Source: Nemertoderma westbladi (lineage: Eukaryota; Animalia; Xenacoelomorpha). Taken from it: DNA of 43,392 nucleotides. The DNA is taken from contig JAUCBJ010000749.1 in the NCBI GenBank assembly GCA_032718475.1, positions 1 to 43,392 of the forward strand. The letters run 5' to 3'. Shown piece by piece: positions 11,111 through 43,392 of the stretch (its first letter is position 1; every line of letters starts with the position of its first letter). The translations under genes were made by a program, and so were the position numbers. The notes under the pieces were generated by a model. It made no database searches. It was not told where the DNA came from and saw nothing but the letters and a program-made list of their open reading frames with translations.

Positions 11111-11264
11111 CGGTAATTATCCAACGGCGATGGAGGGGGTTTAGAGAACGGCGAGATTATCTGCACACGAGGATGTGCGTAAATCGCGTAGCATCTATAT
11201 GGAGGGGTTACAAAGCGCGGGTTGTCAGAGACCAACGGAAAGATGCTGCTGCCAAGGTAACCAG
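11111..11264 (+). CDS. Myo1c: Myosin-I coding exon (IQ motifs)
   Basis: atgcag| ... AG|gtcagt; IQRRWRGFRERR and VASIWRGYKAR IQ motifs. Confidence 0.9.
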
Positions 11265-11783
11265 GTCAGTGATTATGTCGCTACACCGCGCAGCACGTGG
11301 GAACGGTCTCCAGCAACTAGTCTAATGTTAATTAGTGTAAAATTTTAGGTATTTTGTGTGAATTAGTAATATTATTTTAATTTGTCTATTTGCTTTAAGT
11401 TTTAATTAATCAGTGTACTTACTTAGTTTTGGGAATCGGTTTGCGCACTATTAATGGCAATTGCTTAATGGCCAGAAGTTAACCCTGCAGGTTAAAGAGT
11501 GGCGGCCTAAGCCCGAAAAAATGTCATGTAAACGTAGCCCTCATAATTTATTACATTTAGTACAATAAATAAATAAAGTAAAAATAATATTTACAATAAT
11601 TTTAACATAATGTCGTCGATTATAGCCAAGACCCGAAGGCTCTGAAAAATGTGAGTAAAAGTTACAACTCAATCCCATCCGTACTGAATGGCATAATATT
11701 AGCATAGAGTGAACAAAACCATTGGTACCAGTATACAAACCTATCAGTTCCATAAACGTCAATCATAAACTTTATATTTGCAG

Positions 11784-11953
11784 TTTTATTCGCGGTTACT
11801 TGAGAAGGAATGACCCAGAAAGCCAAGAGAATAGTTTTTTCTTGAAGGAAGTCCGTAACTATTATTTACGGAAATGCAGAGAGGCGATGCCGACGTCCCT
11901 ACTTCAACCGTCTTACTTCCCGAAACCGCCGCCGGTTCTCCAGCAGACGTCAG
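11784..11953 (+). CDS. Myo1c: Myosin-I coding exon (post-IQ)
   Basis: ttgcag| ... G|gtagga; FIRGYLRRNDPESQENSFFLKEVR...PKPPP resembles Myo1c [24 protein letters not shown]...WPTPPP. Confidence 0.9.
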
Positions 11954-12272
11954 GTAGGAAAAGTGTCCGTGTTCGCCCAGATATATCATTTTTCCGAAAA
12001 TAATGTGTTCAATAAGCGAGTGGGGTGGTGTTCCCACGGCTCCTACATGGTGTAACCGATGGTTACCATGGCCAATAGCAAGGTTGTTAAGGTAGCTATT
12101 TCAGGGACTATTAACCAGATTTCTCATCGGCGGATTTTTTCGTATTTTGGATATGTTACCACAGACTAACAGGGTTTTGAAAGGCGTGAAATCCAGCTTG
12201 GTTTTATTATTTTCCAGGCCAATCTCTATTTCTAGCAGTAGTTAATTTCATTGTTTTATAATTGTATTCTAG

Positions 12273-12517
12273 TTTTACTCAACGATATTTGGCGTATAAA
12301 TCATTCCCGAAAGCTGATAAGAGCCCTAACAAAGTCAGACATTATGGTAATGGAACAGAAGTCGGTAGCGCAGGATCTGTTTGGCGGGAGGAAATCGATG
12401 TATTCGGCGAGCGTGTCGATGGTTTTCCGCGACTCTCATCTGGATGAGGATCAAACCGAGTCACTGATGGAAGTCTGGAATAAATCTATCCAGAGCAGCG
12501 ATAAGGAGATAATGGTG
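12273..12517 (+). CDS. Myo1c: Myosin-I coding exon (TH1 start)
   Basis: ttctag| ... |gtaagt; QKSVAQDLFGGRKSMYSASV resembles Myo1c [20 protein letters not shown]. Confidence 0.9.
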
Positions 12518-13363
12518 GTAAGTATAATAGGTATTATAATAATAGCATAATATATTGGTATAATAGGGGTGGGGGGTGATCCCTCAATAGGGAAGAAAAA
12601 TTTAAAAGGGCAACACAAACAAATTGGCATTTTTGATGCAACATTCAACAAAATCCAGGGTTGAAGATCGCACAGCTGCTGAGCAAGTTGGAGCATTTAT
12701 GTACCGTGTCTGGAAACCGGCACCTCGAACCGAGAACTTTCAGTTCAATTATAATCGCCTAGAATATTAACTACCACTACTATTCGAGTGAGCTCAGGCA
12801 GTTGAAATGTGGTCCTTGCAGGCTTCCCGATTCTCTATAGTTATCGCAGTGTCTTTTCTCCCAAGTGCAGTACCTTTCAAATTCGTCCATATGTCATTGC
12901 CAACAAACTGGTGCAGGAAAGCTCTGATTTCCAGATGGTATCCATTTTTAATAGAGATTTGATTTTTATTTATGTTTATGGCCTCATGGAACTTCTTTAT
13001 TTTCTCGAGTTAGGAGAAACCTTGTTTGATGCGATATTAGGACCAAGAGCACTGACTGGTCTAGAGCGTAAAAAATCGTCTAAATCTCTATGTTGGTTTT
13101 GAGACCTCAAACTACCAATGTCAACAACCACTTTCTTGGCTAAGCAATGCCAGGAGCAACCATTATAAATAAAATAATATGAAGTTTATTAAGAACCATA
13201 TTTATTATGAGTCCAGATTGATGCGATATTGGCAATTGTGCTCACTGGCAGGGCACGCGGAAACAACATCCCATTCCCGCAATTCCGACCGCAAGGATGT
13301 TTTTTCATTTGTAATTAAACATTTTGTGGAATATTTTTGTTATTATAGATTACTTTGTTTCAG

Positions 13364-13582
13364 TTTGTAACTCCTGTTCTAAAGATTAATAGAAGCGGGT
13401 TTACTCGGACTCCAAGGATAATGATTGTCTCCAACTCATCCATCATTACCTTAAATGAAAACTTCCGCGTAAAACAACGAATTGGATATGAAGATCTCGA
13501 ATCTATTGTTTTAAGCAAAAATAGTGATGATGTGTTGATTCTAAAACATAAAGACTGTAATAATTGGACATCTTTGAATAAG
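13364..13582 (+). CDS. Myo1c: Myosin-I coding exon (TH1 PH-like domain)
   Basis: tttcag| ... |gtacac; KINRSGFTRTPR keeps the K...R phosphoinositide-binding signature of TH1. Confidence 0.9.
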
Positions 13583-14218
13583 GTACACACGTAGCCAATG
13601 AATTCATGTTATTGATATATTAATTTTTTATTTTAATTTTCATTAATCCTATAGTAAGCGATATGTACTAATCATGCAAAAAAGCCAAAATGTTATCTAA
13701 AATCTGAAAACTGAATAATATTTCATATTGAGTTATATATGTTCTTAATCTTATATAATTATAAAACTATAATTTAATGGAAGATATTTTTGTAGCATGA
13801 ATATTTATTTAACTAACGCTTTTTAACAAATTTGGTGATGATTTCTCATTTAAACGTTTTGCTTTTCGAACTAAAGACATTTAAAAATGAGAATATCCGA
13901 ATCTTTTGCTGGCACTGTGTATTGCGGATACTAAACTATAAAACGAGTAGCGGACACTAAACATTCTGGAATAATATATTAACATAATAATATATATTCA
14001 ATTCAATATTCAATTATTTTATTGGTCTAAAACTTCAGTCAGCAAGCTGAGCTGAAGGCAGTTTAAAACAACTGATAATTATAAGACCAACGTCTACGCT
14101 ACCCTAAGTACAACCAAACAAATACGTGAACTGTACTGCATATAATAATATTGAACTGTAATTTACAAACAACATATAATAATAATAATATATATATAAT
14201 ATATTAACGATATTTTAG

Positions 14219-17098: not shown

Positions 17099-17619
17099 TG
17101 TGACGGGATCTACGGATCCCGGTTTATCCGTTTGGGTTTTCTATCCACGCGTCCCCGCCGTGTGTGAAAGGTAAACGAGTTCTGATGTTGGGTAATATGT
17201 ATAAAGGTATAATAGTCTGACAGTTGATATAATATAGTATGACACAATAGGTAATATATAATGGCGGTAGCGGACGGTGACAGAAGTCCCCGTTCCACCC
17301 TACTGATCTGACCTACTGAGTAAACTGAGTGAATGATTACAGGTTACTGGTTATATTGCACGGTGGCCTTATTGCTACTCAATCGATGCCTTTCCCCCCT
17401 CTGATTGGTTGATACCCCTGTTGGCACCCTGTGGAGTATTCCGTTCACTCCACCTGTTCTCCTTGGGTTAGGGGTTTGGCCCCTGACCCTCTATTGTGTG
17501 CTTCCTTCCCACTCTCATTGGGATGGCACGAGTTGGTTAATTGCCCAATCTCGTGGCTCCCAATATTGCTTATCGGCTAATAACTTTATGGGGTGTTGGC
17601 GGGATTGAATAAGCTAACA
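17099..17619 (-). repeat. 3' LTR (521 bp)
   Basis: TGTGACGGG...GCTAACA; differs from the other LTR by one substitution and one 4-bp indel that I could see. Confidence 0.96.
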
Positions 17620-20329: not shown

Positions 20330-23300
20330 TTAAATAATTATTTTATATTTTGTGCGTGGGAAGGGCGTCTCGCCCTCATTCCCACCCCCCTCAGTCCAAA
20401 ACTTTGGACGACTAAACACTCTCAGGTGCCCCTCCTTCCGGTAGGCACTCTCCTGCTGCCCTCCTATACGTCCTCTAACTCTTCGCCACACTCTCTTCGG
20501 TGCTACCTTTGCTGGCCTCCCCCTTCGTATGTGCGCTGGCATTAGAGCCCTCGACGACCCCCGCTCGTTCCTTGGTACACGCGGTGTCTGCCCATGTAAT
20601 GCCCCCTCGCACTGTGTCCGTCCTGCGTGTGTATGCAACACGCCTCCTCCTACTTTCCCGACTCCCTTAAGTTTGCTGATAGGCTTCTCTGCCCCTTGTT
20701 TAATCCTTTCATATCCTCTCCCTTTCCAACACTCTCCGGATCTGTGTCCTTTTACCACACATCGATGACATAGTCCGTTTGCGTCTGTGTAGGCTACACG
20801 ATCTCGTTTGGGCAACGCTTGCCAGTACTTGCAACTCCTGGTCTTATGGGTTCCGTCCCGATGTAATTGACATTGGAATCCTGGATTATAGCGTTTCCTG
20901 TATAGTCCTTCACGTATCGCGCTTAGGTTTATACGTACCGATTTAATGTTTTGGTTGTCTAGACTCGGCCTACTGGGTATATTGGGATTGTGTTTATTTT
21001 TGGTGTTATTTTCTTTCTGTCCCTGCCACGGTGTGGCCCTGCTACCAGCTAACCGTGGACTAGCAGTCCCCTGTACGGCCGCGTGTGGTGGTAACTGTCC
21101 GCACGACCTGTTCTCGTCCAGGGAGTTCGATGTTCTCGCTCCTATCGGGGTACATTGTCGATATTGTGATGGGGGAATGTCACCCTGTCCCCCCCCAGCC
21201 GGTATGTTTGGTACTGGGGTTGATGTTAATATATTGGGGCCCATACATCTATCTACAATAACTCCCCCCTCCCCTGGATGTATGTTATGTCCCTGTGTAT
21301 TATAGTCATGCTGCTGTACCGATATAGGCCTACCTACCTCTCGCCTACCTACCGGTATGTACTCCGCGACTTCCGGGTTTAATCCCGTCGTTCGCGCTAC
21401 CCCATCGCCTACTCTATCTCTCCCAGCATGGCCTATAATAGTATGTGCAGTAAGGCCTACAGTATGTCCTGCAGTCTGCATGTGCCCTTCCGAACCGAAG
21501 TTTATTCTTCGCGAATCTCGAATCTCCCCGCGACTACCGTACTCTCGATCGGCAGCTATATCCCGTCGGGAAGTTTCCCCTCGATCCCCTCTCCTGTTCT
21601 CTTCTTCGTACTGGTACGTCCTGTACCCCCCTCCTGGCGTGCGGTGTGTTTCTCCGGGGCGACGGCAATCTCCCGAAGTTCGACTCCACCGACTTCCTAA
21701 CTCCATCTCTATTATCGACGGTCCGCTATCCGTCCTCACACTCCTATCGTTCGTGGCGACACTTCTTCTACTATCTTCTCTTCTTCTCTTTTCTGTGTAG
21801 TATTCCGGCTCGTGAGGTCTCTCGTCGACCCCCCGGTTAAACTCCACTGTTCTTCTTCCCTCTTCTGGTCGGGCTCGACGCTTCGTCTGCCCTCTCGCGA
21901 CGTCAACCTGCTTCTCTCTGCTCGATCGCACGCCGCTGGGGATACTCGCAATCCCCCTATTACTCTCCGTCGCCGGTTGTTGCGGTTTACCTATTTCGGC
22001 CCTCGCATTATCCGCTGACGGCTGTGGGACACTCCCTGCCCCCCCTCTCTCTCTACTAATCTCTCGCGGTGGGGTGCCCGTAGCCCCCCCCCACCCGCCA
22101 CTTCTAACTTCACTATTTCTTACTATACTTCTACACCCCTCTTGTGGGGCATTCTCTGCCCCCCCTCTCTCGCCACTAATCTTATGTGGTGGGGCGCCGG
22201 TAGCCCCCCCCCACCCGCCACATCTAACTTCAATATCTCTTACTTCGTCTCTACACCCCTCTCTAGTCGACGCACTGTCTCTACTACGGTTGGGTCTATT
22301 CACCCCCGCCTCTCTCTCTACTACTGCGTGGCCCATCAGGCCTACTTCGGGTTGGCTCAACCCCGCTACCCCCTGCCTACCAACTACGTGGCCTACCAGG
22401 CCGCCGTCGGGTTGGCTCAACCCTGCCACTTCCTGCCTACTAACTACGTGGCCTACCAGGCCACCGTCTGCTGAGTTATGTACGTCCGACACGCTCATAT
22501 TAATAGCACCATTCCCAATATTATTTGTTAAATCAATTAAATTGTTAGAATTTGAAACGGGATTATTATTTAAATTATTTAAATTACTTAGATCACTACT
22601 ATTCTCTAAACTTAAATTATTATTCGAATTATTTTGCGGGTTTGAATTGAAATTATTATTTAGAATATTTGTATTTAAATTTAAATTACTACTACCCGGT
22701 AAAATATTATTTCCTGTAATAAAGGGATTAGGGTTATTTACTACGGTACTATTAACATTAACTGTCTCTAACGTACTACTACTACACCCCCCGCCCGTAC
22801 GGCTACACCAGTTCTGGCTCTCTCGCCCGGTGCCTGTAAGTGGGGGCTCACTCTCTGATATCTCCAACCGCGCCAGTTCTAGTCGGCGCTGGTCTAATTT
22901 GGCTTGATATTGCGCAAGCCTCCCTAGCTGAGCACGCAAATCATCCCGCATGCGCTCACCCTCTATCCCCATCTCTCGCATATTCTGCTCGGCCAACTCT
23001 GCCTCTCTCGCAAGCATCTCAAGCCGCCTCGCCGGCTCGCTCTCTACTCCTATCTCTCGCTCTCTACACTCCTTGGCTCCCTCTCTACACTTCTCGGCCC
23101 TCTCTCTACACTCCCTCTCCAACTCTCCTACCTTCTCTGAGAATGCGGTTCCCTCTCTCAATCGTCTCTCTAACTCATTCTGCTCTGTCGCAACCATTTC
23201 TAATTTATACGCCATGCGTTTACTCTCTCGCACCCGTCTTTCTTTTACGGAGGATGTAGCAGACTTATCGGTTGCGACGGACTCCCGTCGCCCCTCCGTC

Positions 23301-24178
23301 CCACTAACTTTCCCCCGCCTCCCGGAACTTCCTCCGACCGACGAGACCGAATCCTCGGAGTTAACCTCGGATTCGCCCTCCTCAGGTCTCTTCCAACCCA
23401 CTAATTTTACTCCCCGGGCATCGACTAAGTATGGCCCTACGTACACTACGCTAGGTTCCATACCCCCACATTCCCATAGTTCGATCAGTTCGTTGGCAAC
23501 TCCCCTCGCCCTCTCCTCGGCTAGTTCTCTCTGCCCAAAACGCATTAGGTAATCAAAGTGTCTATTCGACTCACCTAGTCGTTTCCTCAGTCTCACCTCG
23601 TCTATCTTCGCCCCTCCTTTGGCCTCTCTCAGTCGCTCTCGGGTCGCGAGGTAGGCTCGTCGGAGCCGGTCGCTGACTCCGACGTCCTCGTTGCCGACAT
23701 CTCCTCTATCCTTCCGTGTCCGGCGTCGTACCGTCGGCCCCACCGTCGCCCCTCCGGTGGACCGTTCGTCGTCCTCGGCCTGTGGCTGGCCGGCGACATC
23801 GGTACCGACATCTCCCTCATCTCTCCGGGTCCGACGTCGTACCGACGGCCCCACCGTCGCCGTTCCGGTGGACCGTTCGTCGTCCTCGGCCTGTGGCTGG
23901 CCGGTGACATCGGTATGTCGACCCTCGCTCCGCGTCGACTCGTCTTTCTCTTCTTCTCCCTTCTCGTCTCCTTCCCTCGACTCACTCTCCGGTTGTAGAC
24001 GACCCCCCACATCTTGATTCGTCGGGTTGCTCGTTGTCGACGTGGCGTCAACCTGCGTCGACGTGGTCGGCGTAGCATCGATCGGCGTCGTGGGTTCGTA
24101 TCGTCTCGCCGTGGCCTCGCGGATCGTTAGATCGTCGTCCGGGGTCCGCGGCGGTGTCATTCCTCTCTCTCGACTCAT
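20330..24178 (-). CDS. Gag-like protein (~1282 aa from first ATG): coiled coil, long low-complexity region, two zinc knuckles
   Basis: Uninterrupted ORF inside the LTR element; CQLHRDGTHKTRSC...DR......GLCHRCVVKGHRSGEC follows the BEL/Pao Gag Cys-His layout; the track start at 24223 is GTG, first ATG at 24178. Confidence 0.85.
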   Translation of the reverse strand: MSRERGMTPPRTPDDDLTIREATARRYEPTTPIDATPTTSTQVDATSTTSNPTNQDVGGRLQPESESREGDEKGEEEKDESTRSEGRHTDVTGQPQAEDDERSTGTATVGPSVRRRTRRDEGDVGTDVAGQPQAEDDERSTGGATVGPTVRRRTRKDRGDVGNEDVGVSDRLRRAYLATRERLREAKGGAKIDEVRLRKRLGESNRHFDYLMRFGQRELAEERARGVANELIELWECGGMEPSVVYVGPYLVDARGVKLVGWKRPEEGESEVNSEDSVSSVGGSSGRRGKVSGTEGRRESVATDKSATSSVKERRVRESKRMAYKLEMVATEQNELERRLREGTAFSEKVGELERECRERAEKCREGAKECREREIGVESEPARRLEMLAREAELAEQNMREMGIEGERMRDDLRAQLGRLAQYQAKLDQRRLELARLEISESEPPLTGTGRESQNWCSRTGGGCSSSTLETVNVNSTVVNNPNPFITGNNILPGSSNLNLNTNILNNNFNSNPQNNSNNNLSLENSSDLSNLNNLNNNPVSNSNNLIDLTNNIGNGAINMSVSDVHNSADGGLVGHVVSRQEVAGLSQPDGGLVGHVVGRQGVAGLSQPEVGLMGHAVVEREAGVNRPNRSRDSASTREGCRDEVRDIEVRCGGWGGATGAPPHKISGERGGAENAPQEGCRSIVRNSEVRSGGWGGATGTPPREISRERGGAGSVPQPSADNARAEIGKPQQPATESNRGIASIPSGVRSSREKQVDVARGQTKRRARPEEGRRTVEFNRGVDERPHEPEYYTEKRRREDSRRSVATNDRSVRTDSGPSIIEMELGSRWSRTSGDCRRPGETHRTPGGGYRTYQYEEENRRGDRGETSRRDIAADREYGSRGEIRDSRRINFGSEGHMQTAGHTVGLTAHTIIGHAGRDRVGDGVARTTGLNPEVAEYIPVGRREVGRPISVQQHDYNTQGHNIHPGEGGVIVDRCMGPNILTSTPVPNIPAGGGQGDIPPSQYRQCTPIGARTSNSLDENRSCGQLPPHAAVQGTASPRLAGSRATPWQGQKENNTKNKHNPNIPSRPSLDNQNIKSVRINLSAIREGLYRKRYNPGFQCQLHRDGTHKTRSCKYWQALPKRDRVAYTDANGLCHRCVVKGHRSGECWKGRGYERIKQGAEKPISKLKGVGKVGGGVLHTHAGRTQCEGALHGQTPRVPRNERGSSRALMPAHIRRGRPAKVAPKRVWRRVRGRIGGQQESAYRKEGHLRVFSRPKFWTEGGGNEGETPFPRTKYKIII

Positions 24179-24257
24179 CGTCGTCTTTGGTGGCTGGCAG
24201 CCACGTTGATAACAATCTATCACTGTCAGGGCAGCTGGGCGGATCTGATTCTGTCAC

Positions 24258-24774
24258 TGTGACGGGATCTACGGATCCCGGTTTATCCGTTTGGGTTTTC
24301 TATCCACGCGTCCCCGCCGTGTGTGAAAGGTAAAAGAGTTCTGATGTTGGGTAATATGTATAAAGGTATAATAGTCTGACAGTTGATATAATATAGTATG
24401 ACACAATAGGTAATATATAATGGCGGTAGCGGACGGTGACAGAAGTCCCCGTTCCACCCTACTGATCTGACTGAGTAAACTGAGTGAATGATTACAGGTT
24501 ACTGGTTATATTGCACGGTGGCCTTATTGCTACTCAATCGATGCCTTTCCCCCCTCTGATTGGTTGATACCCCTGTTGGCACCCTGTGGAGTATTCCGTT
24601 CACTCCACCTGTTCTCCTTGGGTTAGGGGTTTGGCCCCTGACCCTCTATTGTGTGCTTCCTTCCCACTCTCATTGGGATGGCACGAGTTGGTTAATTGCC
24701 CAATCTCGTGGCTCCCAATATTGCTTATCGGCTAATAACTTTATGGGGTGTTGGCGGGATTGAATAAGCTAACA
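24258..24774 (-). repeat. 5' LTR (517 bp)
   Basis: Copy of 17099-17619; TATA-like CAATATAA (24513-24506) ~30 nt upstream of Inr-like TCAGTT (24483-24478) on the minus strand. Confidence 0.96.
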
Positions 24775-25713: not shown

Positions 25714-26926
25714 CACGGTCCCATCCAGTGAGTGAGGGGATACCCCACGGTCCCATCCAGTGAGTGAGGGGATACCCCACGGTCCTACCCAGTGAGTGGG
25801 GGGATACCCCACGGTCCCATCCAGTGAGTGGGGGGATACCCCACAGTCCCATCCAGTGAGTGAGGGGATACCCCACGGTCCCATCCAGTGAGTGAGGGGA
25901 TACCCCACGGTCCTACCCAGTGAGTGGGGGGATACCCCACGGTCCCATCCAGTGAGTGGGGGATACCCCACAGTCCCATCCAGTGAGTGAGGGGATACCC
26001 CACAGTCCCATCCAGTGAGTGAGGGGATACCCCACGGTCCCATCCAGTGAGTGAGGGGATACCCCACGGTCCTACCCAGTGAGTGGGGGGATACCCCACG
26101 GTCCCATCCAGTGAGTGGGGGGATACCCCACGGTCCCATCCAGTGAGTGAGGGGATACACCACGGTCCCATCCAGTGAGTGAGGGGATACCCCACGGTCC
26201 CATCCAGTGAGTGAGGGGATACCCCACGGTCCTACCCAGTGAGTGGGGGGATACCCCACAGTCCCATCCAGTGAGTGAGGGGATACACCACGGTCCCATC
26301 CAGTGAGTGAGGGGATACCCCACGGTCCCATCCAGTGAGTAAGGGGATACCCCACGGTCCTACCCAGTGAGTGGGGGGATACCCCACGGTCCCCTCCAGT
26401 GAGTGAGGGGATACCCCACGGTCCTACCCAGTGAGTGGGGGGATACCCCACAGTCCCATCCAGTGAGTGAGGGGATACCCCACGGTCCCATCCAGTGAGT
26501 GAGGGGATACCCCACCGTCCTACCCAGTGAGTGGGGGGATACCCCACGGTCCCATCCAGTGAGTGGGGGGATACCCCACAGTCCCATCCAGTGAGTGAGG
26601 GGATACCCCACGGTCCCATCCAGTGAGTGAGGGGATACCCCACGGTCCTACCCAGTGAGTGGGGGGATACCCCACGGTCCTACCCAGTGAGTGGGGGGAT
26701 ACCCCACGGTCACATCCAGTGAGTGAGGGGATACACCACGGTCCTACCCAGTGAGTGGGGGGATACACCACGGTCCCATCCAGTGAGTAAGGGGCCCACG
26801 GTCCTACCCAGTGAGTGGGGGGATACCCCACAGTCCCCTCCAGTGAGTGAGGGGATACACCACGGTCCCATCCAGTGAGTTAGGGGATACCCCACGGTCC
26901 CATCCAGTGAGTGAGGGGATACCCCA
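25714..26926. repeat. 32-bp minisatellite, ~38 units (CACGGTCCCATCCAGTGAGTGAGGGGATACCC)
   Basis: Directly visible contiguous units with a few recurring variants. Confidence 0.97.
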
Positions 26927-28411: not shown

Positions 28412-28591
28412 CTACACTTCTGTAGACGTAGGTAGAGTACATGTTCGATCATGTATACCCTCATCGTCTGTATATTGCGTGTATATATACCAATATATTA
28501 TATTGAAGATGAGAAACGTTAACGGAAATAGTAATCGACACACCTGGTCTATTCGACTCACGGAATTGTAAGGAGTTTCCAAGCTTTTAGC
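28412..28591 (-). CDS. Cys-loop GABA-A alpha/Grd-like receptor subunit, last exon (M4)
   Basis: tttttag|; AKSLETPYNSVSRIDQVCRLLFPLTFLIFNIIYWYIY...* matches NSVSKID..SR..FP..F..FN..YW..Y; not in ORF track. Confidence 0.92.
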   Translation of the reverse strand, partial: AKSLETPYNSVSRIDQVCRLLFPLTFLIFNIIYWYIYTQYTDDEGIHDRTCTLPTSTEV

Positions 28592-30200: not shown

Positions 30201-30415
30201 CTATAAAGTAATTTTTATTCGACGATGAAATAATGTAATTCCGATTAAATATTAAAATACTTATTATTATATATTTAAATATAAATATTTAAACGCCCTT
30301 TATGGCTAATGATTTTTTTCATTTTGCCCGATTATTGTAATAATCGGAATTAAAATGTAAATAAACTGCAAAATGTATAAGTGATAATATATTATTCAAT
30401 TAGGTTTCTTCATAC

Positions 30416-30624
30416 CGAATTTTCCTTTGGTATCGAAACAACTGGTTTTCCACCTTCAGTTCTCTTTGTGAAATAGTGAACGCAAGAAAATTCTAGAACC
30501 GCGGCAAACACAAACATTAGGGAGGTTAACACAAACCAATCCATTGCGCAGGGATAGGAAACTCGGGGGAGGTATGATCGAGATTGGTTCCCCAACATGA
30601 TCGCAGTTAGCAACGTCATTATAC
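30416..30624 (-). CDS. GABA-A-like receptor subunit exon (M2-M3)
   Basis: ttttatag|GT ... |gtatga; GIMTLLTAIMLGNQSRSYLPRVSYPCAMDWF...FVFAAVLEFSCVHYFTK matches G.TT.LT...R..LP.V.Y..AMDWF...FVF.AL.EF..V.YFTK. Upstream exons not found in window. Confidence 0.93.
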
Positions 30625-30899
30625 CTATAAAAGTAAGATAAACTGTATAAACATTACTACATATATTATACAATTTAAAATATACACAATCACTCTTAAT
30701 ATAAACAAACTTTTTTTATAGAAAAAAGTTGCCCACCCCCTTAATTTTTTTCATATTTCAATCAAATGCTACTAAACTTGGAATAAAGATAGTCTGACAA
30801 CTTTTCTTACTGCTGGAATGGCCGGATTTTTTAAATTTAAATTATTTAAATTTTATTTTAATTCAATGGTACAAGACGTAAAAAATGTCTCTTTGCAAT

Positions 30900-30975: not shown

Positions 30976-31371
30976 CCTTATTTTTTACTTTGGAATGTAA
31001 TCTAGATATCAATATAACCGCCTTCGTCTGTAGTTCCGAAACTGAAAACCGTTTTTAATTTCACAAATAACTTCAAAATTCCATGTGTAATATATTGCTA
31101 AATATAAAATTGTTAACGGGCTTGTTGTAGCGAAATAAATAGAAAATTATAAAAGTCAGAGCCAGAGCCTTAAGAAAAAGTTTCAAACTATCACCATACC
31201 AAATTTCGTAGTATTTGATTGAAGTTTGAAAAAATTCGGGAGGGGGTGTGAGGCTCAAAAAGGTTTTTTATATTAAGTGTTGTTGAACATTTATTCCGGG
31301 CAAAACAACACACTGCTAATGATAGTCTACGTAAAAAATGTGTTGTTTTGTCAACAATTGCATGTTGTTAA

Positions 31372-32774
31372 CCAACATGCACCAACATGCGAATGATAGA
31401 CCATTATTGAATGTTTGCAAACGGATGTTAAAAGGGGAAAAGCCACCACCAATTTGGACTAAAGGTCAACTAAAGCCTCTCCCCAAGAAAGGAGACCTCG
31501 GCATACCAACAAACTATCGTGGGATCTTTCTGCTTGTGGTAGCTGCCAAAATATACAATAAAATGATTCTATATAGGATTAGGCCTCACATAGAGAAACT
31601 ACTGCGTAAGAGCCAAAACGGATTTCGACCAAGTAGATCAACAATAGCTCAGATACTTGCACTACGGAGACTGATTGAAGGAATTAAGTCAAAGAATCTC
31701 CCCGAAGTCATGACTTTTGTGGACTTCAAGAAGGCATTAGACTCCATCCATAGAGGTAAAATGCTTGAAATCCTAAGAGCTTATGGAATACCAGAAGTAA
31801 TTGTTGCTGGCATTGGATTGTTATATTGTGACACAGAAGCGCAGGTACTCTCACCAGATGGTGAAACTGAGTTTTTCTCAATCCTGGCTGGCGTACTGCA
31901 AGGTGACACATTAGCACCATTACTATTTGTAATTGTGCTGGATTACGCAATGAGGACGGCCACAAAGGGTGAAGATCTGGGATTCACACTTCAAGAACGC
32001 AGAAGTAGTAGATATCCGGCAACTACAGTCACAGACACCCACTCTGCTACGCTAGCAGATGCACAGCTTCTACTAAATAAACTGGAGAGGGCTGCTAAGG
32101 AGGTTGGATTGCATATAAATGCTACCAAGACCGAATTCATGACCTTTAATGTTGATGGAAACTTGACAACCATTGATAATAATCAACTAAGGAAGGTCGA
32201 TGACTTCCACTACCTTGGATCATGGATAGAGAGTAGCAATAAGGACATAGAAGTTAGGAAAGCAAAGGCTTGGGTAGCTCTATCAAAAATGGATACCATC
32301 TGGAAATCAGATCTCTCCAGGCACCTGAAGACTAAGTTCTTTCGAGCCACAGTGGAAAGTGTATTTTTATACGGGGGTGAGACCTGGACACTGACTAAAT
32401 CACTTGAACAACGAATTGATGGTTGCTACACAAGACTACTAAGGGCAGCCCTAAACATCAGCTGGAGACAACACATGACAAACGCCGAGCTTTATGGTAC
32501 AATACCACCTGTATCAACCACCCTCCGTGAACGCAGATTAAGATTCAGTGGGCACTGCTGGCGAAGTAAAGACGAGGTCATACCAGATCTACTTCTCTGG
32601 CAACCAACTCATGGAAAGCGTAGTCGTGGACGACCTGCCATAACATATATAGATCAACTTGAAAGGGATACTGAACTTGGGAGAAACGAAATTGCGACAA
32701 CTATGGAGAATCGGGAAGCCTGGAAGGATCTCATTTCCACTGTCCGAGTTCGCTCGACCTAGTAGTAGTAGTAG
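31372..32774 (+). mobile_element. RTE-clade LINE, 5'-truncated, RT ORF lacking the FADD motif
   Basis: NYRGI, QNGFR, FVDFKKA.DS, GVLQGDTLAP, YLGSW motifs; (TAG)n tail; TSD CATGTTGTTAA at 31361-31371 and 32775-32785. Confidence 0.93.
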
Positions 32775-32837
32775 CATGTTGTTAAACACTTTTCCCGGAC
32801 AGAACAACACTCTGCTAATGATAGTCTACCTAAGAAA

Positions 32838-34335
32838 CTAGTACTAGGATCGGCATGCTGCATTGCAGCTGCATTTTTAAGAATGCTGTGCCGGCTTATC
32901 GACAAAATTGCACAACTCCCTATCACCCATGACATTTGCTAGATCATCCGCATCTTCAAGGCCATTGTCCTTTAAGAAAGTCATGGGCTGTCCACCATGC
33001 TTATTCACTCCATGAGGCTGCCAAAGTACAAGATTATGCACTGGCTGGTCCTCACGGCGAAAGCAATGTCCTGCAAAGCGGAGGCGATTTTTTTCTAGTG
33101 TCAAGCTTGGGGGAACCAATGAGACACCTCCAATGTTATATAGTGTCTGGTTGGAGATGTGTGCATTGTACTTGACACAATGAACCCGGCGCAGCATTTT
33201 TGTGAATGTGCCATCCAGAGATTTGGTGTCTTCAGCAGTTAGAGCCCAGCATGGACTCACATAGAGGAGTACTGGAACTACTGCTGCTCTAAATAATCGG
33301 ACCTTAAGTTTCCGATTAATTCTCGGTGACTTCCAAATCCTGGAAAGCCTATTCAAGGCTGCGCATGCCTTTCCCTTACGTATTCGTATTACGTATTCTG
33401 ACTTCCGGATCCATGATCCCAGGTAACAGAAGTCATCCACATGCACAAGCATACCATCTTTTGAGCTTATGCTCATCCGATCAGAGACTTGCTGAGGACT
33501 TTCAAAGTTAACTGTCAAAATTTTGGTCTTTTTGGAGTTAATAAAAAGACCAACACTAGAAGCAGCATGTTCTAATGAGCTGAGGAGCCGTTTGGCTCCC
33601 TCTAGTGATTCTGAGAGTACTCCTAAGTCATAAGCAAAGATCAGTTAGGTACTTGGCAGGATTTCCTCGACTTCTGGAGCCAGTAGGTGGAGTTATCATC
33701 ACCCCATCATCATTATGATGATCTAAGGACATGCGTAGACCATAGTCAACAACAATTATAAACAAGAATGGTGCAAGTGTGTCTCCCTGGAGGACGCCCC
33801 ATAACACTTCAAATGGTTCTGTGTCATCGTCAACAGTAGACACAAATGTTGTCGAACCATCGTTTACTGATCTGATTGCTGCAATAATTTCATCAGGAAT
33901 CCCATATAATGAAAGTATGCTGAACATACGTGAGCGAGATACTGAATCAAAGGCCTTGAAGAAGTCAACAAATATAACAGCCAGATGCCTGTCTTTCTTT
34001 TTTGATAACTCTTCAATTATCCTTCTAAGTGCCAAAATGTGCTCCATGGTCCCACGACCTTTACGGAACCCATTCTGATTTCCACGGAGCAGTCTCTCAA
34101 TGGGATCCCTGATGCGATTTAATAGAATTCTATTGTATAGCTTTGCAGCAATCGAGATCAATGAGATTCCCCGAATAGAACCATAGAGTGTTAGGTTGCC
34201 CTTCTTGGGAACTGGCACCAACTTATTTGTTTTCATTTCTTGTGGGACTCTTGTTGTTCGGTACATGTCTACTATGATGGGATAGATGAGCTTTAAACAC
34301 TCAGGTATTTTGTGATTTTTAAAAGTGTTATTCAA
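32838..34335 (-). mobile_element. RTE-clade LINE (second family), 5'-truncated, frameshifted RT
   Basis: RGISL, QNGFR, FVDFFKAFDS, GVLQGDTLAPFLF then frameshift/stop at ~33628-33640; C-terminal ORF 32877-33518. Confidence 0.92.
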
Positions 34336-36120
34336 AGTGTTATTTTAGTCCTAGGACAAAACAACACCTGTTGTTTTTCCGCTCCTGCCAGCTTGTCAGC
34401 CTGTCTGTAAATATGACCGGCAGGCTCTGGTTACCTCGGCTCTCTGCAGACCGGTTCATTACTGTATTACATCATTAGGTACGGTACTACATTGCTGTGC
34501 CTGCCTGTAGCAGTAGGCCTACTACACCAGTACTACACTACACACATCCTGACAAGTCGTATATAGGCCTACCCATGCAGTCATATCAGCACTCAGCATC
34601 TATCTGTCTTGCAGTCTAGTGTAGTTTGGTTCTCAACGAGTTTCAGTTTATGCCTACATTGTAACGATTACTGGAAGACGGGTTAGTCTATCAGTTTGTC
34701 CGTCAAAATTTAGAAGACAGACAGACAGTCAAACTGTCAGACAGATATATTAGATACTACCAAAATTAAATACATCAGATATGAAATCAGAAATGAAATC
34801 ACCGATCCGGAAAACCCCCATATTGAGAATTTTAGTGACTTGGTATGAAACCATAATAGTGTCCAACATTACTGACCGATTTACAGACTACAGACGTCAG
34901 GTTTGAGCCAGAAGGTTCAACCTTTAAAGCAAATTATCTCGGAATTACATTTCACGATATTTCCATTTTTCAAAATACTACTTCTCCGCCGTTTTTCACC
35001 CAAATTCGACAATTTCTGGCTCGTTTAAAAGGTTTTTGACGATCTTTAAAAATTATCCAGTATTTCTTTGAATTTTTTTTTTTAATATTATTGAAAATTT
35101 TAATTCAATTTATTAATTCTAATTAATTAAATTAGTTAAAAATTAATTAAGTTTTGAAAATCGGCTGGACAATTTTTATAGATCCGAAACGAAGGTGCTG
35201 AGTCCAAAAAAGTTGGATTAAAAAAAAAATTGGATAAATATTACGGGACGTCGTAGTATCTAGGGTGAAATATTACTTTCGCCACTCGCCGCTAGAGGGA
35301 CACAAAACATTTTAAAATTTCCATTATTGTTGCTCTTTGGCCTTCCCCAGTTTGATTTGACACCACGCCATACTATAACATCTTGATAACATGTCTATGT
35401 TGCCATGTTGATTTACACTATGCTTTTTGTCTAATCGTTAGAAAAATAAACATTCATATTTGTTTAACCCCAAAAAGACCAAGCCCCATTTTCTATACTG
35501 GACCCCCCAAACTAAACCCTCTTCAGAATCTATTATTGTCGTTTCATTGTAGTAGTTAATCTGAAATTACTACAGCGGTACTAAATTATCTTATCGCGTT
35601 GTGTTGTTTTGTCCGGTAAAAGTGTACAACAACGCAATTATTGACCGGTTGTTTTGTTGTTTTTCCTGTTGTACAAAACAAACGGTCAATAATGTACGTG
35701 ATTGTGTAATTACTTTATCACCCGCCACATTGATGTTACACCGATGGCGAATTATAAAATTACCATTTCTTTTCGTAATCAGTTAAAGGTACCGGTAGTG
35801 TATGGACAGCAACTGCAATGGCTAGACTGCAACATTTTTTCTACCTTTATTATTCTTATGCCAGCTTATTGCTTGATAAGATCCAATTAATGCAAACCAT
35901 TAATTTGTAAGTAAGAGAAGATGCCAATTATATATGCATAGCATTCCATCAACCTTGATTTTAGGGTTCAGTACTTCTCCATGGAAAATGATGGAATGCG
36001 AATGATAGCCAAAGCACTAGTGCATAAAACCAGGCTTCCCGATTGAAGGAGTAGTAACTAATGTTCTATAAAACCAGGCTTCCCGATTGTATGAGTAGTA
36101 ACTAATGTTCTATAAAACCA

Positions 36121-37483
36121 ATGTGGAGACACCGATGCCCTTGTCCCAGAAACGAAGGGAGCTCAAAGAAATTCATTTATGAAAGCAAACTTCTCAAACC
36201 ATGTTCTATTCTTGGTGGAAGTGAGAAGTTGCATGAGATTATTAGCGTAATGAAGACAGATAACATAACTGCAGCTGTAATGTCTGATAATCTTATTCTA
36301 CAATACGGAAGGAAATTGGCGAATAAATTTGGCCATAATGTCGATCAACACCGATTTGTTCGGGACAAATTGAGGGAGATTGGGCGTCTCTTAATAGGAT
36401 TACGATCATACAATAATTCCCCAGGTGCGGCACTAAGTGAATACATCGACCCAATGAAAATCTCACTTGTTATTAATACAGTGCATTCTTTGGCAGGATT
36501 CAATTCCCATGACCATACATTGAAGGTTCCAACTCTGGCCCTCAAACTAGGACATGCTGTGAAGAAATGTGCGGTAATTGTGAAAGGTAATGCCATAGAA
36601 GTTGGCAACATTCCCGAAATAGAAAATACTGAAAGATTTCTACAAATTTGCGCATTAAGGTGGCCTGAGTTTGTGTCATCTCACGCCCTAAGGACTCTAG
36701 ATGAAAAGAAGCGCAATAAGACGTTAATCTTACCTTCCACTGATAGCGTAGTTACCCTATGCGAATACCTACAGGAGAATATAAAGTACCACTCTGAAAT
36801 GCTAAATCGGGCCATCGATGTAAAGTCAAATTGGGAATGTCTCAACGAACTTGTTTTGGCATATCTTATTGTCTTTAACAGGCGTAGAGAGGGTGAAGTT
36901 TCTCGCATGCATGTCACAGATTTTAACAAACGGCATTGTGGAACCGAATTTCCCGATATTGAGAATCTGAGTCAATTTGAACAAGGACTTTGTAGTCTCT
37001 ATGAAGTGATTGACATCATTGGGAAACGTGGTAGACCTGTACCTGTGTTGCTTAGTAATGAACTGACAGAAGCCATTGAAAGATTAATACTTTACAGAGG
37101 TGAAGCTGGGGTAAATAAGAGCAACCTATTTCTGTTCCCTCGTTCAAATCAAGGAAGTAGTATCCATATACGAGGTTATGACTGCATTAGAAAATATGCA
37201 AAGAAGGCAGAAGTGCAAAATCCAGCTTCCCTGACCTCAACCAACTTACGAAAGCACATCGCAATAAATGTTCAAATGCTTAACCTTTCGGAACGAGAAC
37301 TGGACCTTCTGGCGGATTTCATGGGACACGACATTCGAGTCCATAGACAATTTTACAGACTACCTGATAAAATCCAAAGGGTGACAAAGCTCGCTCAACT
37401 GTTTAAGGTTATGGAGGAGGGCAAGTTAAGGAACTTCGCTGGAGGGAATCTTGATGATCTTCTACATGATCATAGTGATCCAG
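36121..37483 (+). CDS. Tyrosine recombinase gene, exon carrying the whole catalytic domain (5' end probably truncated)
   Basis: FNRRREGEVS (Arg), IIGKRGRPVP (Lys), STNLRKH (Arg), FMGHD (His), FYRLP (Tyr) in tyrosine-recombinase order; strong donor CAG|GTAAGT at 37483. Confidence 0.88.
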
Positions 37484-37654
37484 GTAAGTAGTACCCTTTG
37501 TTGGTTTTGAATTCAATTAAGGTCATCTCATGACTCACGTTTATTGTTTTGGTTGATATAATCTTCCACTGAACCTGTTCCTTCAATGTTCCTCAATGTT
37601 CCTGTTCCACAATTTGTTTTTAGCATCTTCGATGCAGGTTCGATTATTTATGGC

Positions 37655-38103
37655 AGTAGTAGTACAGTACCAGTACTCTTATATGGGAGTCCATGCACAG
37701 AGATACCAAATCTCTGGTTGGCACTTTCACAAGAATGTTGCGCCGTGTTTATTGTGTCAAGTATAATGTACACATTTCCAATAAGACTCTGTACAACATT
37801 AGATGTGCTCCATCAATCTCCCCTAGCATGACACTCGAACGAAACCGCCTCCGCTTTTCAGGACATTGCTTTCGCCGTGCAGGACCAGCCAGTGTATAAT
37901 ATTGTACTTTGGCAGTCTCATGGAGTGAATAAGCATGGTGGACAGCTCATGACTTTCATGAAACGCATCTTAAAGGACGCTGGCCTTGAAGATGCGGATG
38001 ATCTAGCAAATGTCATGTGTGATAGGGAGTTGTGGCGGAGTAATTTTGTCAACAAGCCGGCAAAGCATTCTTAATATACATGCAATGCAGCATGCCGATC
38101 GTA
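37655..38103 (+). mobile_element. RTE 3' fragment in recombinase intron 1
   Basis: Same family as 32838-34335 (GTFTRMLRRV...RLRFSGHCFR; ends GCATGCCGATC). Confidence 0.88.
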
Positions 38104-39060
38104 GAATTTAGCATAAATTCGAGTATAAATTGTTGTGGAGGCTGTACTGATTAATGTAATATAGAAAATGAGACATTCCTCTATCAAATTTTTTCACATA
38201 AATAATTTCGTAATAATTGATGAGAAGTTAACATTGAAATCTTTAAAATCTTTTATCATTAAAATCATTAAAATCTTTGCCTTTTACCAAATGATTATTA
38301 ATCATAATTAATTATGTCCTCCGTCATTTTTCAACCAATTTTCTTCATTTTTGGCTAATTCGAACGAGCTTTGGAAGCTTTGGAAGTTTTGGAAGTTATC
38401 TTATGGAATTTTAATAAATATTATCATTTTTTGTAAATAGCCAATTTTAATTGAAAATATGATTAATTAAATTAATTAATTAAAATAAAATAGCTAATTA
38501 AAAATTATATAAGATAACTTTTGTAGAGTCCATGACACTGAGTCCAAAAAACTTGGTTTCAAGGAACCAAGATTGAGGGATTAGGGGCAATTTTAGTGAA
38601 TCTTTAATTCCACTACCAGCCGCTAGGGGGAGGCTATAAATTTTCAAATTTTCCTATAGAGGCTATTTGACCTTCCACAAAGTGGTTCGCCATGATAAAA
38701 TAGCAACATTATCATTTACCACTAATTGACATTTTAAAAAAAGGTTCATGGGGGGTACCCCCCACCCCCCCCCCCCCCCCCCCTTAATTTAGCAATGTAA
38801 GAAATTGATTAATCAACACATAGTTAAGTGTTAGCCTACTTTGCACACAAGTAAATACTGTATAAATATTGCAAAATATATAATATATATTATTAAAACA
38901 GAAATAGAATTGAAATAAACATAAATTAAAAATATATATTAATACAAAATAATATTAAATAGAGTATATATTAATACAATATAATATTAAATAGAGTATA
39001 TATTAATACAATATAATATTAAATATATAATATTAATATTAAAATAGTATAGTATAGTAT

Positions 39061-39360
39061 ACTACTACTACTACTACTACTACTAGGATCGGCATGCTGC
39101 ACTGCAGCTGCATTTTTAAGAATGCTGTGCCGGCTTGTCAACAAAATTGCACCGCCACAACTCCCTATCACCCATGACATTTGCTAGATCATCCGCATCT
39201 TTAAGGCCAGTGTCCTTTAAGATGCGTCTCAAGAAAGCCATGGGCTGTCCACCATGCTTATTCACTCCATGAGGCTGCCAAAGTACAAGATTATGCACTG
39301 GCTGGTCCTCACGGCGAAAGCAATGTCCTGCAAAGCGGAGGCGATTTTGTCCTAGTGTCT
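39061..39360 (-). mobile_element. RTE 3' fragment with (TAG)n tail, inserted in a TATAG tract
   Basis: Near-identical to 32845-33100; (TAC)n at 39061-39084; AGTAT repeats on both sides. Confidence 0.9.
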
Positions 39361-39365
39361 ATACT

Positions 39366-39983
39366 ATATAGTATAGTATAGTATAGTATAGTATAGTATA
39401 GTATAGTTAGTATAGTATAGTATAGTATAGTATAGTATAGTATAGTATAGTATAGTATAGTATAGTATAGTATAGTATAGTATAGTATAGTATAGTATAG
39501 TATAGTATAGTATAGTATAGTATAGTATAGTATAGTATAGTATAGTATAGTATAGTATAGTATAGTATAGTATAGTATAGTATAGTATAGTATAGTATAG
39601 TATAGTATAGTATAGTATAGTATAGTATAGTATAGTATAGTATAGTATAGTATAGTATAGTATAGTATAGTATAGTATAGTATAGTATAGTATAGTATAG
39701 TATAGTATAGTATAGTATAGTATAGTATAGTATAGTATAGTATAGTATAGTATAGTATAGTATAGTATAGTATAGTATAGTATAGTATAGTATAGTATAG
39801 TATAGTATAGTATAGTATAGTATAGTATAGTATAGTATAGTATAGTATAGTATAGTATAGTATAGTATAGTATAGTATAGTATAGTATAGTATAGTATAG
39901 TATAGTATAGTATAGTATAGTATAGTATAGTATAGTATAGTATAGTATAGTATAGTATTATTATATTATAATAGTATAGTATA
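39366..39983. repeat. (TATAG)n pentanucleotide microsatellite, ~120 units
   Basis: Directly visible. Confidence 0.98.
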
Positions 39984-40049
39984 TTATTTTCAAATGTTAT
40001 AGTAATTTTTATTATAATAACTAGGTCTACTTCATATTATTAATTACAG

Positions 40050-40163
40050 GTGATGTGGAAATTGGAACAACAGACTCGGAAGATGAGGAGCCGGCAAAGG
40101 AATCATCACCATTAATCCAAAATCGCAAACCAACTAAATCAACGCCATTCCCATCAAAGAAAG
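40050..40163 (+). CDS. Tyrosine recombinase gene, exon 2 (acidic/basic linker)
   Basis: ttacag| ... G|gtaata, 114 bp phase 1/1, in frame: GDVEIGTTDSEDEEPAKESSPLIQNRKPTKSTPFPSKK. Confidence 0.75.
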
Positions 40164-40439
40164 GTAATAAATATTCTTAAAATTCTTAAGAGTAAAAATC
40201 CTTAAGATTCAATAAATTGTAAATGAATCTTTAAATTAATCGCTGCTGAATTAATTAATTAAATAATTTTAATTAATAAACTACATAAAATAGTAAAATA
40301 TGTAGATTAATATTAAAAAAAAATAAAAATAAATTTTGGATACATAACAGACTGTTTACTACAACCCTGTAGTGTCAATATAATAAATCACATGTTCTAA
40401 CAATGTAGCGTCATTACAATAAAGTAATTTTCCTTGCAG

Positions 40440-40663
40440 TGGATGTGCGAAAGAAATTGGAAAGCAAAGATGTTGTACGAAAACCGTGGAGTTTGGCGGA
40501 GAAAGAACTAGTGAAAGAACTTAACAACCACGGAAATAAACTTCCGGGAAAGGCTGAGATATTACAACTGAAAGATAAATATCCTGAGCTAGGAAGCCGA
40601 TCATGGCGGAACATAAAAGATTTCTGCCGTAATAAACAACGAAACAAACTCAAATTTAACTGA
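40440..40663 (+). CDS. Tyrosine recombinase gene, last exon (Myb/SANT-like domain)
   Basis: ccttgcag|, in frame; RKPWSLAEKE...LPGKAE...RSWRNIKDFCRN* has Myb/SANT-like W-S-x-x-E and R-S-W-x-x-I-K pattern. Confidence 0.78.
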
Positions 40664-40677
40664 AATTGATTGTCTCG

Positions 40678-40930
40678 ATTCCCGTCAAGGAAGTTTTAAC
40701 TACATTAATAACTGACATTATTTTAATGACAATATATTAACTGGCATTATTGTAGTAGTACTGTATAATAGTGTATAATAGTGTATATTCCATAAATCTG
40801 GATACCCGTCGGGAAGGTTTAACTAACAATAATAACTGATATTATTTTAATGACAATATTTTAACTGGTATTATTGTAGTAGTACGTAGTATATTCCATA
40901 AATTTTGTTTCCCGTATAGGAAGGTTTAAC
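40678..40930. repeat. ~115-125-bp tandem repeat (2 and a partial copies) in recombinase 3' flank
   Basis: CCCGT..GGAAG.TTTAAC...ATTATTTTAATGACAATAT...TATTCCATAAAT repeated. Confidence 0.8.
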
Positions 40931-41446
40931 AAATATTAATTTGAGTTTAGTATAAGAACAAGTTTAGTACATTACATTAGTAGTATTTCATGTATCCATA
41001 AATATTTTTAGTCAGATTATAATTAAAAATAAATTTCGAAGAACGTTGGAATAAAAGAATTAGATTTCATTGTTAATTTAATTTTTAATTCATTGTCTAA
41101 TGCTGAGACTATTGCAAAAACTACTTGTAGAAAGATATGGCGGTGTATATATTGTACTCAGTTTGTATAAATATTTTTGGTTCTGTCACCCTCATTTATA
41201 ATCAAATACAAAACGGGGACATATTTGTCAACCACCACAGAGTGTTATAACGGGGACATTTTATACACAAAAGTAACACAAACAATATCCGCAAGTTTAA
41301 CACAAACTGTGGACATGAAGCTGTTCAACTGAAAATTTGGAAATATATAAAATAAAACCCGCTGAATCGATTTTAGCTGTAAAACAGACCGGGGACGTCC
41401 CCGTTTTGCAGTATGTCCCCGGTATGTGGGTCAAATTTATGATGTG

Positions 41447-41466
41447 TGTCCCCTATTTACACGAGT

Positions 41467-41556
<90 letters not shown>

Positions 41557-41581
41557 GGGTGAAAGGTGTAAATCGGGGACA
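41447..41581. repeat. (CA)n tract (41472-41556) bracketed by 25-bp imperfect inverted repeats
   Basis: Left TGTCCCCTATTTACACGAGTCACCC (41447-41471); reverse complement of right arm (41557-41581) TGTCCCCGATTTACACCTTTCACCC; 21/25 identical. Confidence 0.9.
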
Positions 41582-41974
41582 TCCCTTTGTTACAAACAAA
41601 CCGAGACCACCTTTCAAATTCATTATTTTTGACAATATACTTTTGAAAATATTATATTCTTTATCGCTATAAAATTTCCTATCTACCCTATATCCTTTGA
41701 TTGACCCAATCACCGTTTTTCCAAACACGCACTTCACCTTAAAACCGGGGACTCACCACGTCGGAGGGAATACACATATGTGTATAATTGTGTTAAATCT
41801 TGGTATGATATAAACAATACAAAACGGGACATTTTACATTTGACAAGCATATTTCATTACTCAAATAAGATATCCATCCCTGAATATTACCAAAGCCTCA
41901 TTACTATTATTCAGCATGATCTTGAAAATATTATTTACATTATTGTCATAATTTAAAGCTATGATTGCAGTTTT

Positions 41975-42425
41975 TCTGCAAACCCGCGGGTGTACATACA
42001 ATTCGGGGACATATTGTATTTCGTTCAATGATTCACGTAGATAGTGGCGGATATTGACCGCAACGCCTTCTTGAGCTGGAGCTATGGTATAGTATATGTC
42101 GATGCTAGTTTTAGCAGGTCTGGATAACTTTGCTCCCCGCCCTCCATATTTTGACAGTGTGCCTTTTGGCTGATATTTATTATGATATCGAAAACATTTA
42201 TTTCATTTGTCAAATTTTAAGGCTATTATTACAGTGCAAACCCGCGGATGTGCATAAAACTCGGGGACATATTGTATTTGGTTCAATGCATTCACCATAG
42301 CAGCAATACGCCTTTTTAGTGCAGGAGCCATGGTATTCTGTATTTCAATGCTTGTTGTAGCAGCTTTGGATAATATTCACCACCCTCCATATTTTACCGG
42401 CGTCTTTTAATTAATAATATGATAT
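41975..42425. repeat. Diverged ~250-bp tandem duplication, each unit with CGGGGACATATTGTATTT
   Basis: GCAAACCCGCGG...CGGGGACATATTGTATTT.GTTCAATG and CCCTCCATATTTT each occur twice. Confidence 0.8.
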
Positions 42426-43392
42426 AGATAAAATTATTTACATCTAAATGTTTTACCCCAAATAAGTTTATAAATAGCACAAACGGCCAGTGTAAAAGAT
42501 CTATCCGGCAAATTGGAAAAAAAACGCTTTCTGTGAATCCTATATAAAGTTTTCATTTTTGTCTGGCAACAACCTATAAACTAGAAAGACTGCTTCTGTT
42601 TGGTCGTCCAATGGAAAGATATAAGTAGTAATGTACTAATGTACAATAATACTAATTTCTACTATATATAAAAAATAGATTTAAAAAATAAGTAGAGAGG
42701 TTGGAGAATATTATTAAAGGATCACATTGTTAGCTATCGATATTTATTTTCGGGCGTATAGCAGTTTGTTAACGAGGGGCTATTTTAATTTCGAGTGTTG
42801 CTAAAGACTAACCCTCGCGTAAAAACCTGGCTCTTTCCAGAGTGTAGGGAATTTTAGATTCTTTTGCTATTTATACTAAATTAGAATTTAATTAGAAAAT
42901 TAGAATTACATTAGAATTTTAGATTCTATTACACTAGTACTACTCATTAAAGATCTGACAATAGGCCTACGACTTTTTTTAACGTTAATATACTGTACAT
43001 ACAATATTGCAATGTTCTAGAGTTAATATATGGAAATAATAATAATAATAATATTGGTTATTTATATAGCGCTTTTCTACGCTCATCATACTCAAAGCGC
43101 TTTTATTATAATTACCCCAGCAAAGCCAGGTTCCCATTATACCGCTGGGTTGGCGTTGGCATTAATGTCTAAAGTGTCTTGCCCAGGGACACAACAGTGC
43201 GAAATTTCCTGAAGTTTTCCAAATAACCTGAAGCGAATAAAACTGAATAATCACTGATGCCGTTCCAGAAGCAAATTAACCTGTATAATTACCGAGGCCG
43301 CAGGCCGAGGTTATTATATTAGGTTATTGTTAATTTTCGCATATTGCTTCGGAAACTAGGTAAAATTATAATCGTATAATTTAAAAAAAATG

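Follow-up and report, generated by a model that had tools for sequence, protein, structure and literature searches.

The inverted arms and CA tract at 41447..41581 of the window (the whole stretch of 43,392 nucleotides of Nemertoderma westbladi DNA analyzed here) are probably the right and left ends of two copies of a Crypton-type, CryptonV-like DNA transposon, one that is likely to integrate into CA repeats and whose copies would here be stacked head-to-tail. The first copy carries a 5′-truncated tyrosine recombinase (YR) gene, and the second begins directly beyond the microsatellite.

The two 25-nt arms (41447..41471 and 41557..41581, + strand) show an inverted identity of 21/25, with no extension of the match outwards. 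The preliminary description had set such arms on both edges of an 85-bp CA tract, and its coordinates and identity were reproduced. Chance is ruled out for the arm match: an inverted identity of 21/25 was reached by none of 199,571 pairs of random 25-mers taken from the window (the best pair had 20). A search of the whole window at up to 8 mismatches gave no other site for either arm. The 85-nt spacer (41472..41556) is made of AC repeats with a single slip near 41518 and ends in ATAC; nowhere else in the window are four or more CA/TG units found in a row. The ends differ from each other: in the left arm (end B, the terminus of the YR-carrying copy) the motif GTCCCC is followed by 18 nt and then directly by the AC repeat, and on the other side the TAC linker (41554..41556, +) separates the tract from the right arm (end A, the terminus of the next element). 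The (AC)n tract itself (41472..41553, +), the presumptive target microsatellite, was probably lengthened by slippage. A repeated element that is linked to the YR gene ends in these arms, and the order across the site is best read as right end, tract, left end. Of the two arrangements that the preliminary description offered for this geometry, head-to-tail stacking fits best and an attP-like circle junction does not hold as the site stands, since the spacer measures 85 nt as against the 6-8 nt given for YR sites in PMC3212892, and the site has host exons around it. A spacer of this length argues against a working attP and fits two integrated ends in a common target.

The stretch is present in three contig sets from public sequencing runs (X1, X2 and X3) that come from two samples, X1 and X3 being one sample; no RNA run was among those listed, and the best-matching run may be the source of the window itself. 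The 5′ and 3′ flanks of the tract were queried separately, and the results refer to the matches listed (left flank: 24 pieces out of 73 and 16 loose ends out of 23; right flank: 32 pieces out of 1377 and 24 loose-end rows out of 396, the latter dominated by a high-copy repeat from 43030 onwards). Among these matches the left arm ran on into 9 AC letters and then 18 letters not found in the window (X1), into at least 17 AC letters (X2) and into 16 AC letters followed by a C-rich run (X3); AC repeats with differing continuations thus follow the left arm in 3/3 runs and both samples, among the matches listed. On the right side the main contigs of X2 and X1 have their first position at 41553 and 41555, respectively, and these contig breaks suggest that the bases directly before the right arm differ between copies. 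The median depth in the listed rows was 203 left and 207 right of the tract in X1, 148 and 128 in X2, and 250 and 172 in X3, a comparison of 5-8 rows per run that covers the longest pieces only, is noisy for X3 and leaves out two X1 contigs of depth below 5, two X3 allele contigs and all rows of a fourth set, X4. The latter (share 0.08) has no cover at 41543-42968 and carries no weight, nor do the gaps in cover at 40400-40695 (X1 and X3) and 42659-42968 (X2). Near-identical contigs exceeded those of other loci or diverged copies 6.8-fold in X1, 9.0-fold in X2 and 2.6-fold in X3; as contig depth is no copy number, we infer rather than count several copies. In X2, contigs at depth 104-192 span the stretch from YR exon 3 through the left arm, and the subterminal region of end B (41150..41446, +) has a depth like that of exon 3. 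The proposal that the site is the terminus of a recombinase element is borne out by these repeated ends and by the continuous depth from exon 3 to the arm.

The relatives of the element are less uniform. A diverged family in X3 aligns across arm and tract with 19 differences in 99 nt, 9 of them without position, and has 121 unrelated letters upstream of the aligned part. A subfamily with 8-10 differences over 98-114 nt departs at 41436 and has no terminal arm (X2 and X3, among the matches listed); in both sets this 41338-41436 segment, about 90-93% identical, runs into one common other sequence at 41436. Among the matches listed, a copy of end A at about 85% (X1, X2 and X3) is aligned from 41560 and preceded by about 347 other letters, and a second diverged copy is aligned from 41556 with 29 unaligned letters upstream. 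Because the diverged copies of end A have other upstream sequence, not every relative adjoins a long tract. The family probably inserts specifically in microsatellites, with exceptions among the diverged copies. Integration into (CA)n, as proposed earlier, is supported by the AC repeats with varied continuations and by the end of a distant family described below; diverged copies with no arm, or with no long tract, run counter to it.

The YR gene next to the site consists of three exons on the + strand. Exon 1 (36106..37483), which encodes the core-binding and catalytic domains, is 5′-truncated near 36115 and is followed by a GT donor at 37484; a predicted exon 2 (40050..40163), an acidic, low-complexity linker, runs from phase 1 to phase 1 in an open frame with AG/GT ends; exon 3 (40440..40663), for a small helical C-terminal domain, is in phase and ends with TGA at 40661-40663. 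The stop codon of this last exon lies 784 nt before the left arm, which agrees with the 0.8 kb given earlier. The match of the open reading frame 36106-37488 to Pfam Phage_integrase (E 3.7e-5, 24 bits) is under the cut-off of 27.1. An AF2 model of the YR had a pLDDT of 87.7, and all ten of its PDB structure matches at E<=0.001 were XerH/XerA chains, with XerD and Cre next in rank. In the YR alignment R259, K307, R382 and H408 are present in 51/51 members and Y417 in 50/51; from their spacing and from what is generally known of YRs, these are taken to be the catalytic residues. The His of the HxxR motif is replaced by Thr at position 379 in 49/51 members, so its absence is a trait of the whole family and not decay. 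The predicted fold and the catalytic residues together place the window gene in the tyrosine recombinase superfamily. A PDB sequence search gave weak matches only (E 0.66, a zinc finger), the ESM Atlas yielded unnamed eukaryotic clusters (0.92-0.94), and Foldseek with the model of a full-length homolog returned YRs and topoisomerases only, the extra domains having no match.

The window gene lacks parts that its homologs possess. Two N-terminal Cys/His motifs (C2H2 and C2HC) are found in 61-62 of 63 homologs before the point at which the window gene starts, and this zinc-finger-like block was not found in the window, whether by a profile or by tblastn with 240 homologs. An end A or a GGGAC cluster upstream of the YR gene, and a 5′ exon of that gene, were likewise not found in the window: this YR copy is without its N-terminal zinc fingers and without its left end. 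At the other terminus exon 3 is matched by 11/240 homologs, and the homolog P0001 has a helical domain at 735-789. A 44-bp tandem duplication of 2.2 copies (36024..36120, +) coincides exactly with the 5′ breakpoint of the gene, and a 124-bp duplication is seen in its 3′ region (40673-40940), where the local depth in X1 and X2 is far over the level of the element; both duplications hold TTCCCG...GAAG-like words.

An alternative is a captured circle: an excised circle would have been inserted at the break in the gene, the junction would be internal, and the 5′ part of the YR gene would lie to the right, beyond the window. The YR sequence breaks off at about 36115 with neither left end nor GGGAC cluster upstream, the depth is equal on both sides of the tract, and end/repeat/end junctions are described for episomes or concatemers of nimaviral YR elements in PMC10871703. 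We nevertheless consider a captured circle unlikely: a core of 85 nt is far beyond the 6-8 nt of a YR spacer, 41557-43392 holds no YR 5′ sequence, and the break is explained equally well if an old copy, in whose intron LINE fragments and an extended TATAG array are found, simply lost its 5′ part.

Both sides of the tract also share a motif. GGGAC occurs 11 times in 41150-42350, a count reached in 0/1000 shuffles (mean 1.36), with six occurrences in mixed orientation left of the tract and five in a single orientation right of it, and the outermost GGGAC of either side begins exactly 24 nt from the tract. In the end B subterminal region the motif is found at 41216+, 41253+, 41392+, 41397- and 41415-, and in the body of the second element (41582..42993, +) at 41748, 41826, 42006 and 42264 in one orientation. 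This right-hand element, which has a depth of about 200 in X1 as far as 42993 and contains a 73% duplication (41908-42152 and 42174-42395), would belong to the YR family on account of its common arm, motif and depth; no YR coding sequence was found in its visible 1.8 kb (41557-43392), its far end being outside the window. Very high-copy short repeats, or a single one, with a summed contig depth of 10^4-10^5, occupy 43030-43392 and could be an insertion into the second element or its boundary.

Relatives of the YR with about 35-44% identity were found in echinoderms, molluscs, fish and one frog (655 and 418 proteins), all of them unnamed in NCBI/UniRef; those of fish, echinoderms and molluscs are annotated as uncharacterized genes. 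PF00856, the SET domain in UniRef, is present in 65/120 of the longer homologs listed (P0121-P0240, isoforms counted separately), and such SET-bearing ‘host genes’ of fish and echinoderms may be misannotated transposon genes. We compared 82 loci with YR relatives, 7 of which hold at least 8 kb downstream of the gene, most being too short for an end to be reached. Three of them (L078, L079 and L080), which come from other samples and encode a YR 38-40% identical to that of the window, have, 8.3-8.5 kb downstream, nine GTCC(T/C)C motifs that all point the same way; the series ends in GTCCCC-N18-GTA(TG)n, which corresponds to the tract, TAC and arm of the window read as reverse complement. The exact pattern was present in 3/82 loci, only with a spacer of 18 (12-29 were tested), at an expectation of 0.001; because the three loci are one family, it is one independent case. 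They are 99% identical up to the tract, and beyond it the flank of L080 differs from that of L078 and L079, a change to be read in the light of short-read assemblies that can switch paths at a TG tract. In this family the YR faces the TAC-type end, opposite to the arrangement in the window. Other simple repeats at the ends of loci (L012, L058, L074 and L035) have no such arm or GC-rich motif cluster. A remnant of a PF13843 DDE transposase was noted in L080 (7749-8803, - strand), between the YR gene and the end of the element. No YR relatives were found in IMG/VR, and the end pattern in 10 viral loci was dismissed as chance, 0/10 running on as a TG tract. Two GTDB loci on bacterial MAG contigs (L081 and L082) encode an animal-type YR; no terminus was found in them and they are most likely contamination with host DNA.

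The distant family also bears on a reading in which the ends belong to CA-targeting elements moved by another enzyme, such as a DDE transposase, or are relics of duplication, with the YR a mere neighbor. It would account for the DDE remnant between YR and end in L080 and for the 79/82 loci without such an end; moreover, the animal Cryptons described in PMC3212892 (CryptonA and CryptonI) are without terminal repeats, and depth alone cannot separate a transposon family from a segmental duplication. Against it stand the single depth level from exon 3 to the arm in X2, the continuations that differ at the tract and nowhere else, and the equal end geometry 3′ of a YR relative from independent samples, and we judge this reading quite improbable. 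It is very unlikely that the assembly has wrongly joined two unlinked element ends over the microsatellite, or that the arms are fortuitous. Among the matches listed no contig bridges the tract, and two repeated ends do invite mis-joins, but the arms are beyond chance and ordinary reads can span a tract of 85 nt. A MITE of 135 bp with the arms as its outer ends and the CA tract as its interior, for which only the short interior enclosed by inverted arms speaks, is contradicted by the bases immediately flanking the arms, which show no target-site duplication, by contigs that are unbroken over the outer edges 41447 and 41581 and variable on the tract side, so that the outer flanks are not unrelated sequence, and by a motif field that reaches hundreds of bases outwards.

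For two stacked copies of a CA-integrating YR transposon, the reading we prefer, the following course of events can be proposed. The YR of an intact copy would bind the terminal arms via its core-binding domain, and the subterminal GGGAC repeats would probably be bound by its zinc fingers or C-terminal domain. The element would then be excised as a circle that links end B with end A via a short AC/TAC core, and the circle junction would be recombined into a (CA)n tract in a single orientation. Each integrated end would keep AC repeats beside it and so stay a target, and because integrated ends remain targets, copies would stack head-to-tail. A second copy that landed next to the first would leave the order end B, (AC)n, TAC, end A, after which slippage probably lengthened the tract. 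The left copy, having lost its 5′ part and left end, cannot mobilize itself. The TAC may be a part of end A or, by analogy with Tn916, a coupling triplet carried over from elsewhere: its identical bases at the identical place in L078-L080, and thus in two distant families, favor the former, whereas the contig starts at 41553 and 41555 hint at variable bases instead of a fixed TAC. A more far-reaching version, which we hold to be doubtful, takes the site as a captured circle or concatemer of a recently active family, with GTCCCC-N18 and TAC as an end code conserved across species and a one-way, homology-tolerant integration into (CA)n resembling that of Tn916; if true, nature would have provided an integrase for a repeat that is among the commonest in animal genomes, and the species would still have intact copies.

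The site lies among host genes in chromosomal animal DNA. Exons of a class-I-type myosin (Myosin_head, IQ and Myosin_TH1) are found at 5561-13591 (+), and exons of a Cys-loop ligand-gated ion channel at 28415-28591 and 30413-30715 (-). None of 75 short minus-strand ORFs in 30.6-43.3 kb is a further exon of the channel, and as no channel exon follows up to the end of the window, the site is probably in an intron of that gene. The window also holds a pair of LTRs (17099-17619 and 24258-24774), 99% identical, that encloses several kb of C/T-rich tandem repeats and, on the minus strand, an ORF of 1307 codons (20330-24253) for which Pfam gave no match; the segment 17099-24774 looks like a young LTR element without recognizable pol. 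Reverse-transcriptase fragments of LINEs, presumably of RTE type, occur in both orientations at 31335-34344, 37636-38104, 39076-39359 and 1074-1736. Such fragments lie upstream of the YR gene, its intron 1 holds further stretches of these repeats, and both fit separate LINE insertions. Tandem arrays include (TATAG)125 at 39367-39987 within YR intron 1, a 34-bp unit repeated 92 times at 2369-5497 and a 32-bp unit repeated 38 times at 25714-26926.

The presence of both ends at one site suggests a minimal substrate composed of the arm, the spacing, the TAC linker and the GGGAC repeats. These parts are conserved in a distant family, with a spacing of 24 nt, and the mechanism is directly testable; a recombinase for placing cargo in (CA)n might be obtained from it. 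CA tracts are also predicted to undergo rearrangements mediated by the YR, as seen with the active CryptonF (PMC9977147). The open literature searched says very little about the catalogued microsatellite-targeting YR transposons of animals, and no study on the ends or biochemistry of such elements was found in it.

The YR protein family of the window is likely the CryptonV of Repbase. That class reportedly comes from Kapitonov and Jurka (2012, Repbase Reports 12:2034). The name CryptonV is used as a class name in PMC4455052 and PMC5753468, and some CryptonV families are said to insert specifically in microsatellites (PMC8869645); the likeness to the window element is this microsatellite insertion. 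Together with the nimaviral end/(TAACC)n/end arrangement (PMC10871703), it runs against the view of the preliminary description that no such animal system had been characterized. The other Cryptons (A/I/F/S) are DNA elements with a YR only, as the window element may be, and resemble it in a short sequence common to both ends and target and in a proposed circle. In PMC3212892, YR sites are given as inverted repeats of 11-13 bp around 6-8 bp, Cryptons are proposed to move via a circle through a short sequence common to both ends, and they are described with direct repeats of 4-6 bp and no terminal inverted repeats. The window element is unlike these Cryptons of 2011 in its imperfect inverted arms of 25 nt, its subterminal motif field and its dinucleotide tract. 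The active element CryptonF-1_cRei is described with clean excision and with integration at a short shared core (PMC9977147). Membership in CryptonA or CryptonF was rejected for the window family, no Pfam match to DUF3504 or GCR1_C being found in 51 members, nor in P0001.

Endogenous nimaviruses share with the window element an animal-genome YR in a simple repeat and a C2H2 motif before the YR. According to PMC10871703, (TAACC)n is an insertion site of nimaviral YR elements, and reads that run end/repeat/end are taken as concatemers or episomes; they differ in being viral genomes of several hundred kb with (TAACC)n or 28S rDNA as targets, and no viral genes were seen at the window site. Tn916 and SXT/R391 offer a mechanistic analogy to the proposed element, with YR excision and integration via a circle. 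According to PMC5812530, the Tn916 integrase does not need core homology and carries coupling bases over, contrary to the earlier assumption that homology in the core is obligatory, and SXT/R391 elements form tandem arrays at one attachment site. They differ in being bacterial and conjugative, in having an excisionase and in their non-microsatellite targets (PMC5812530). The concept of a microsatellite-targeting YR transposon is itself already known, and the window element probably belongs to a kind that has been catalogued and little studied.
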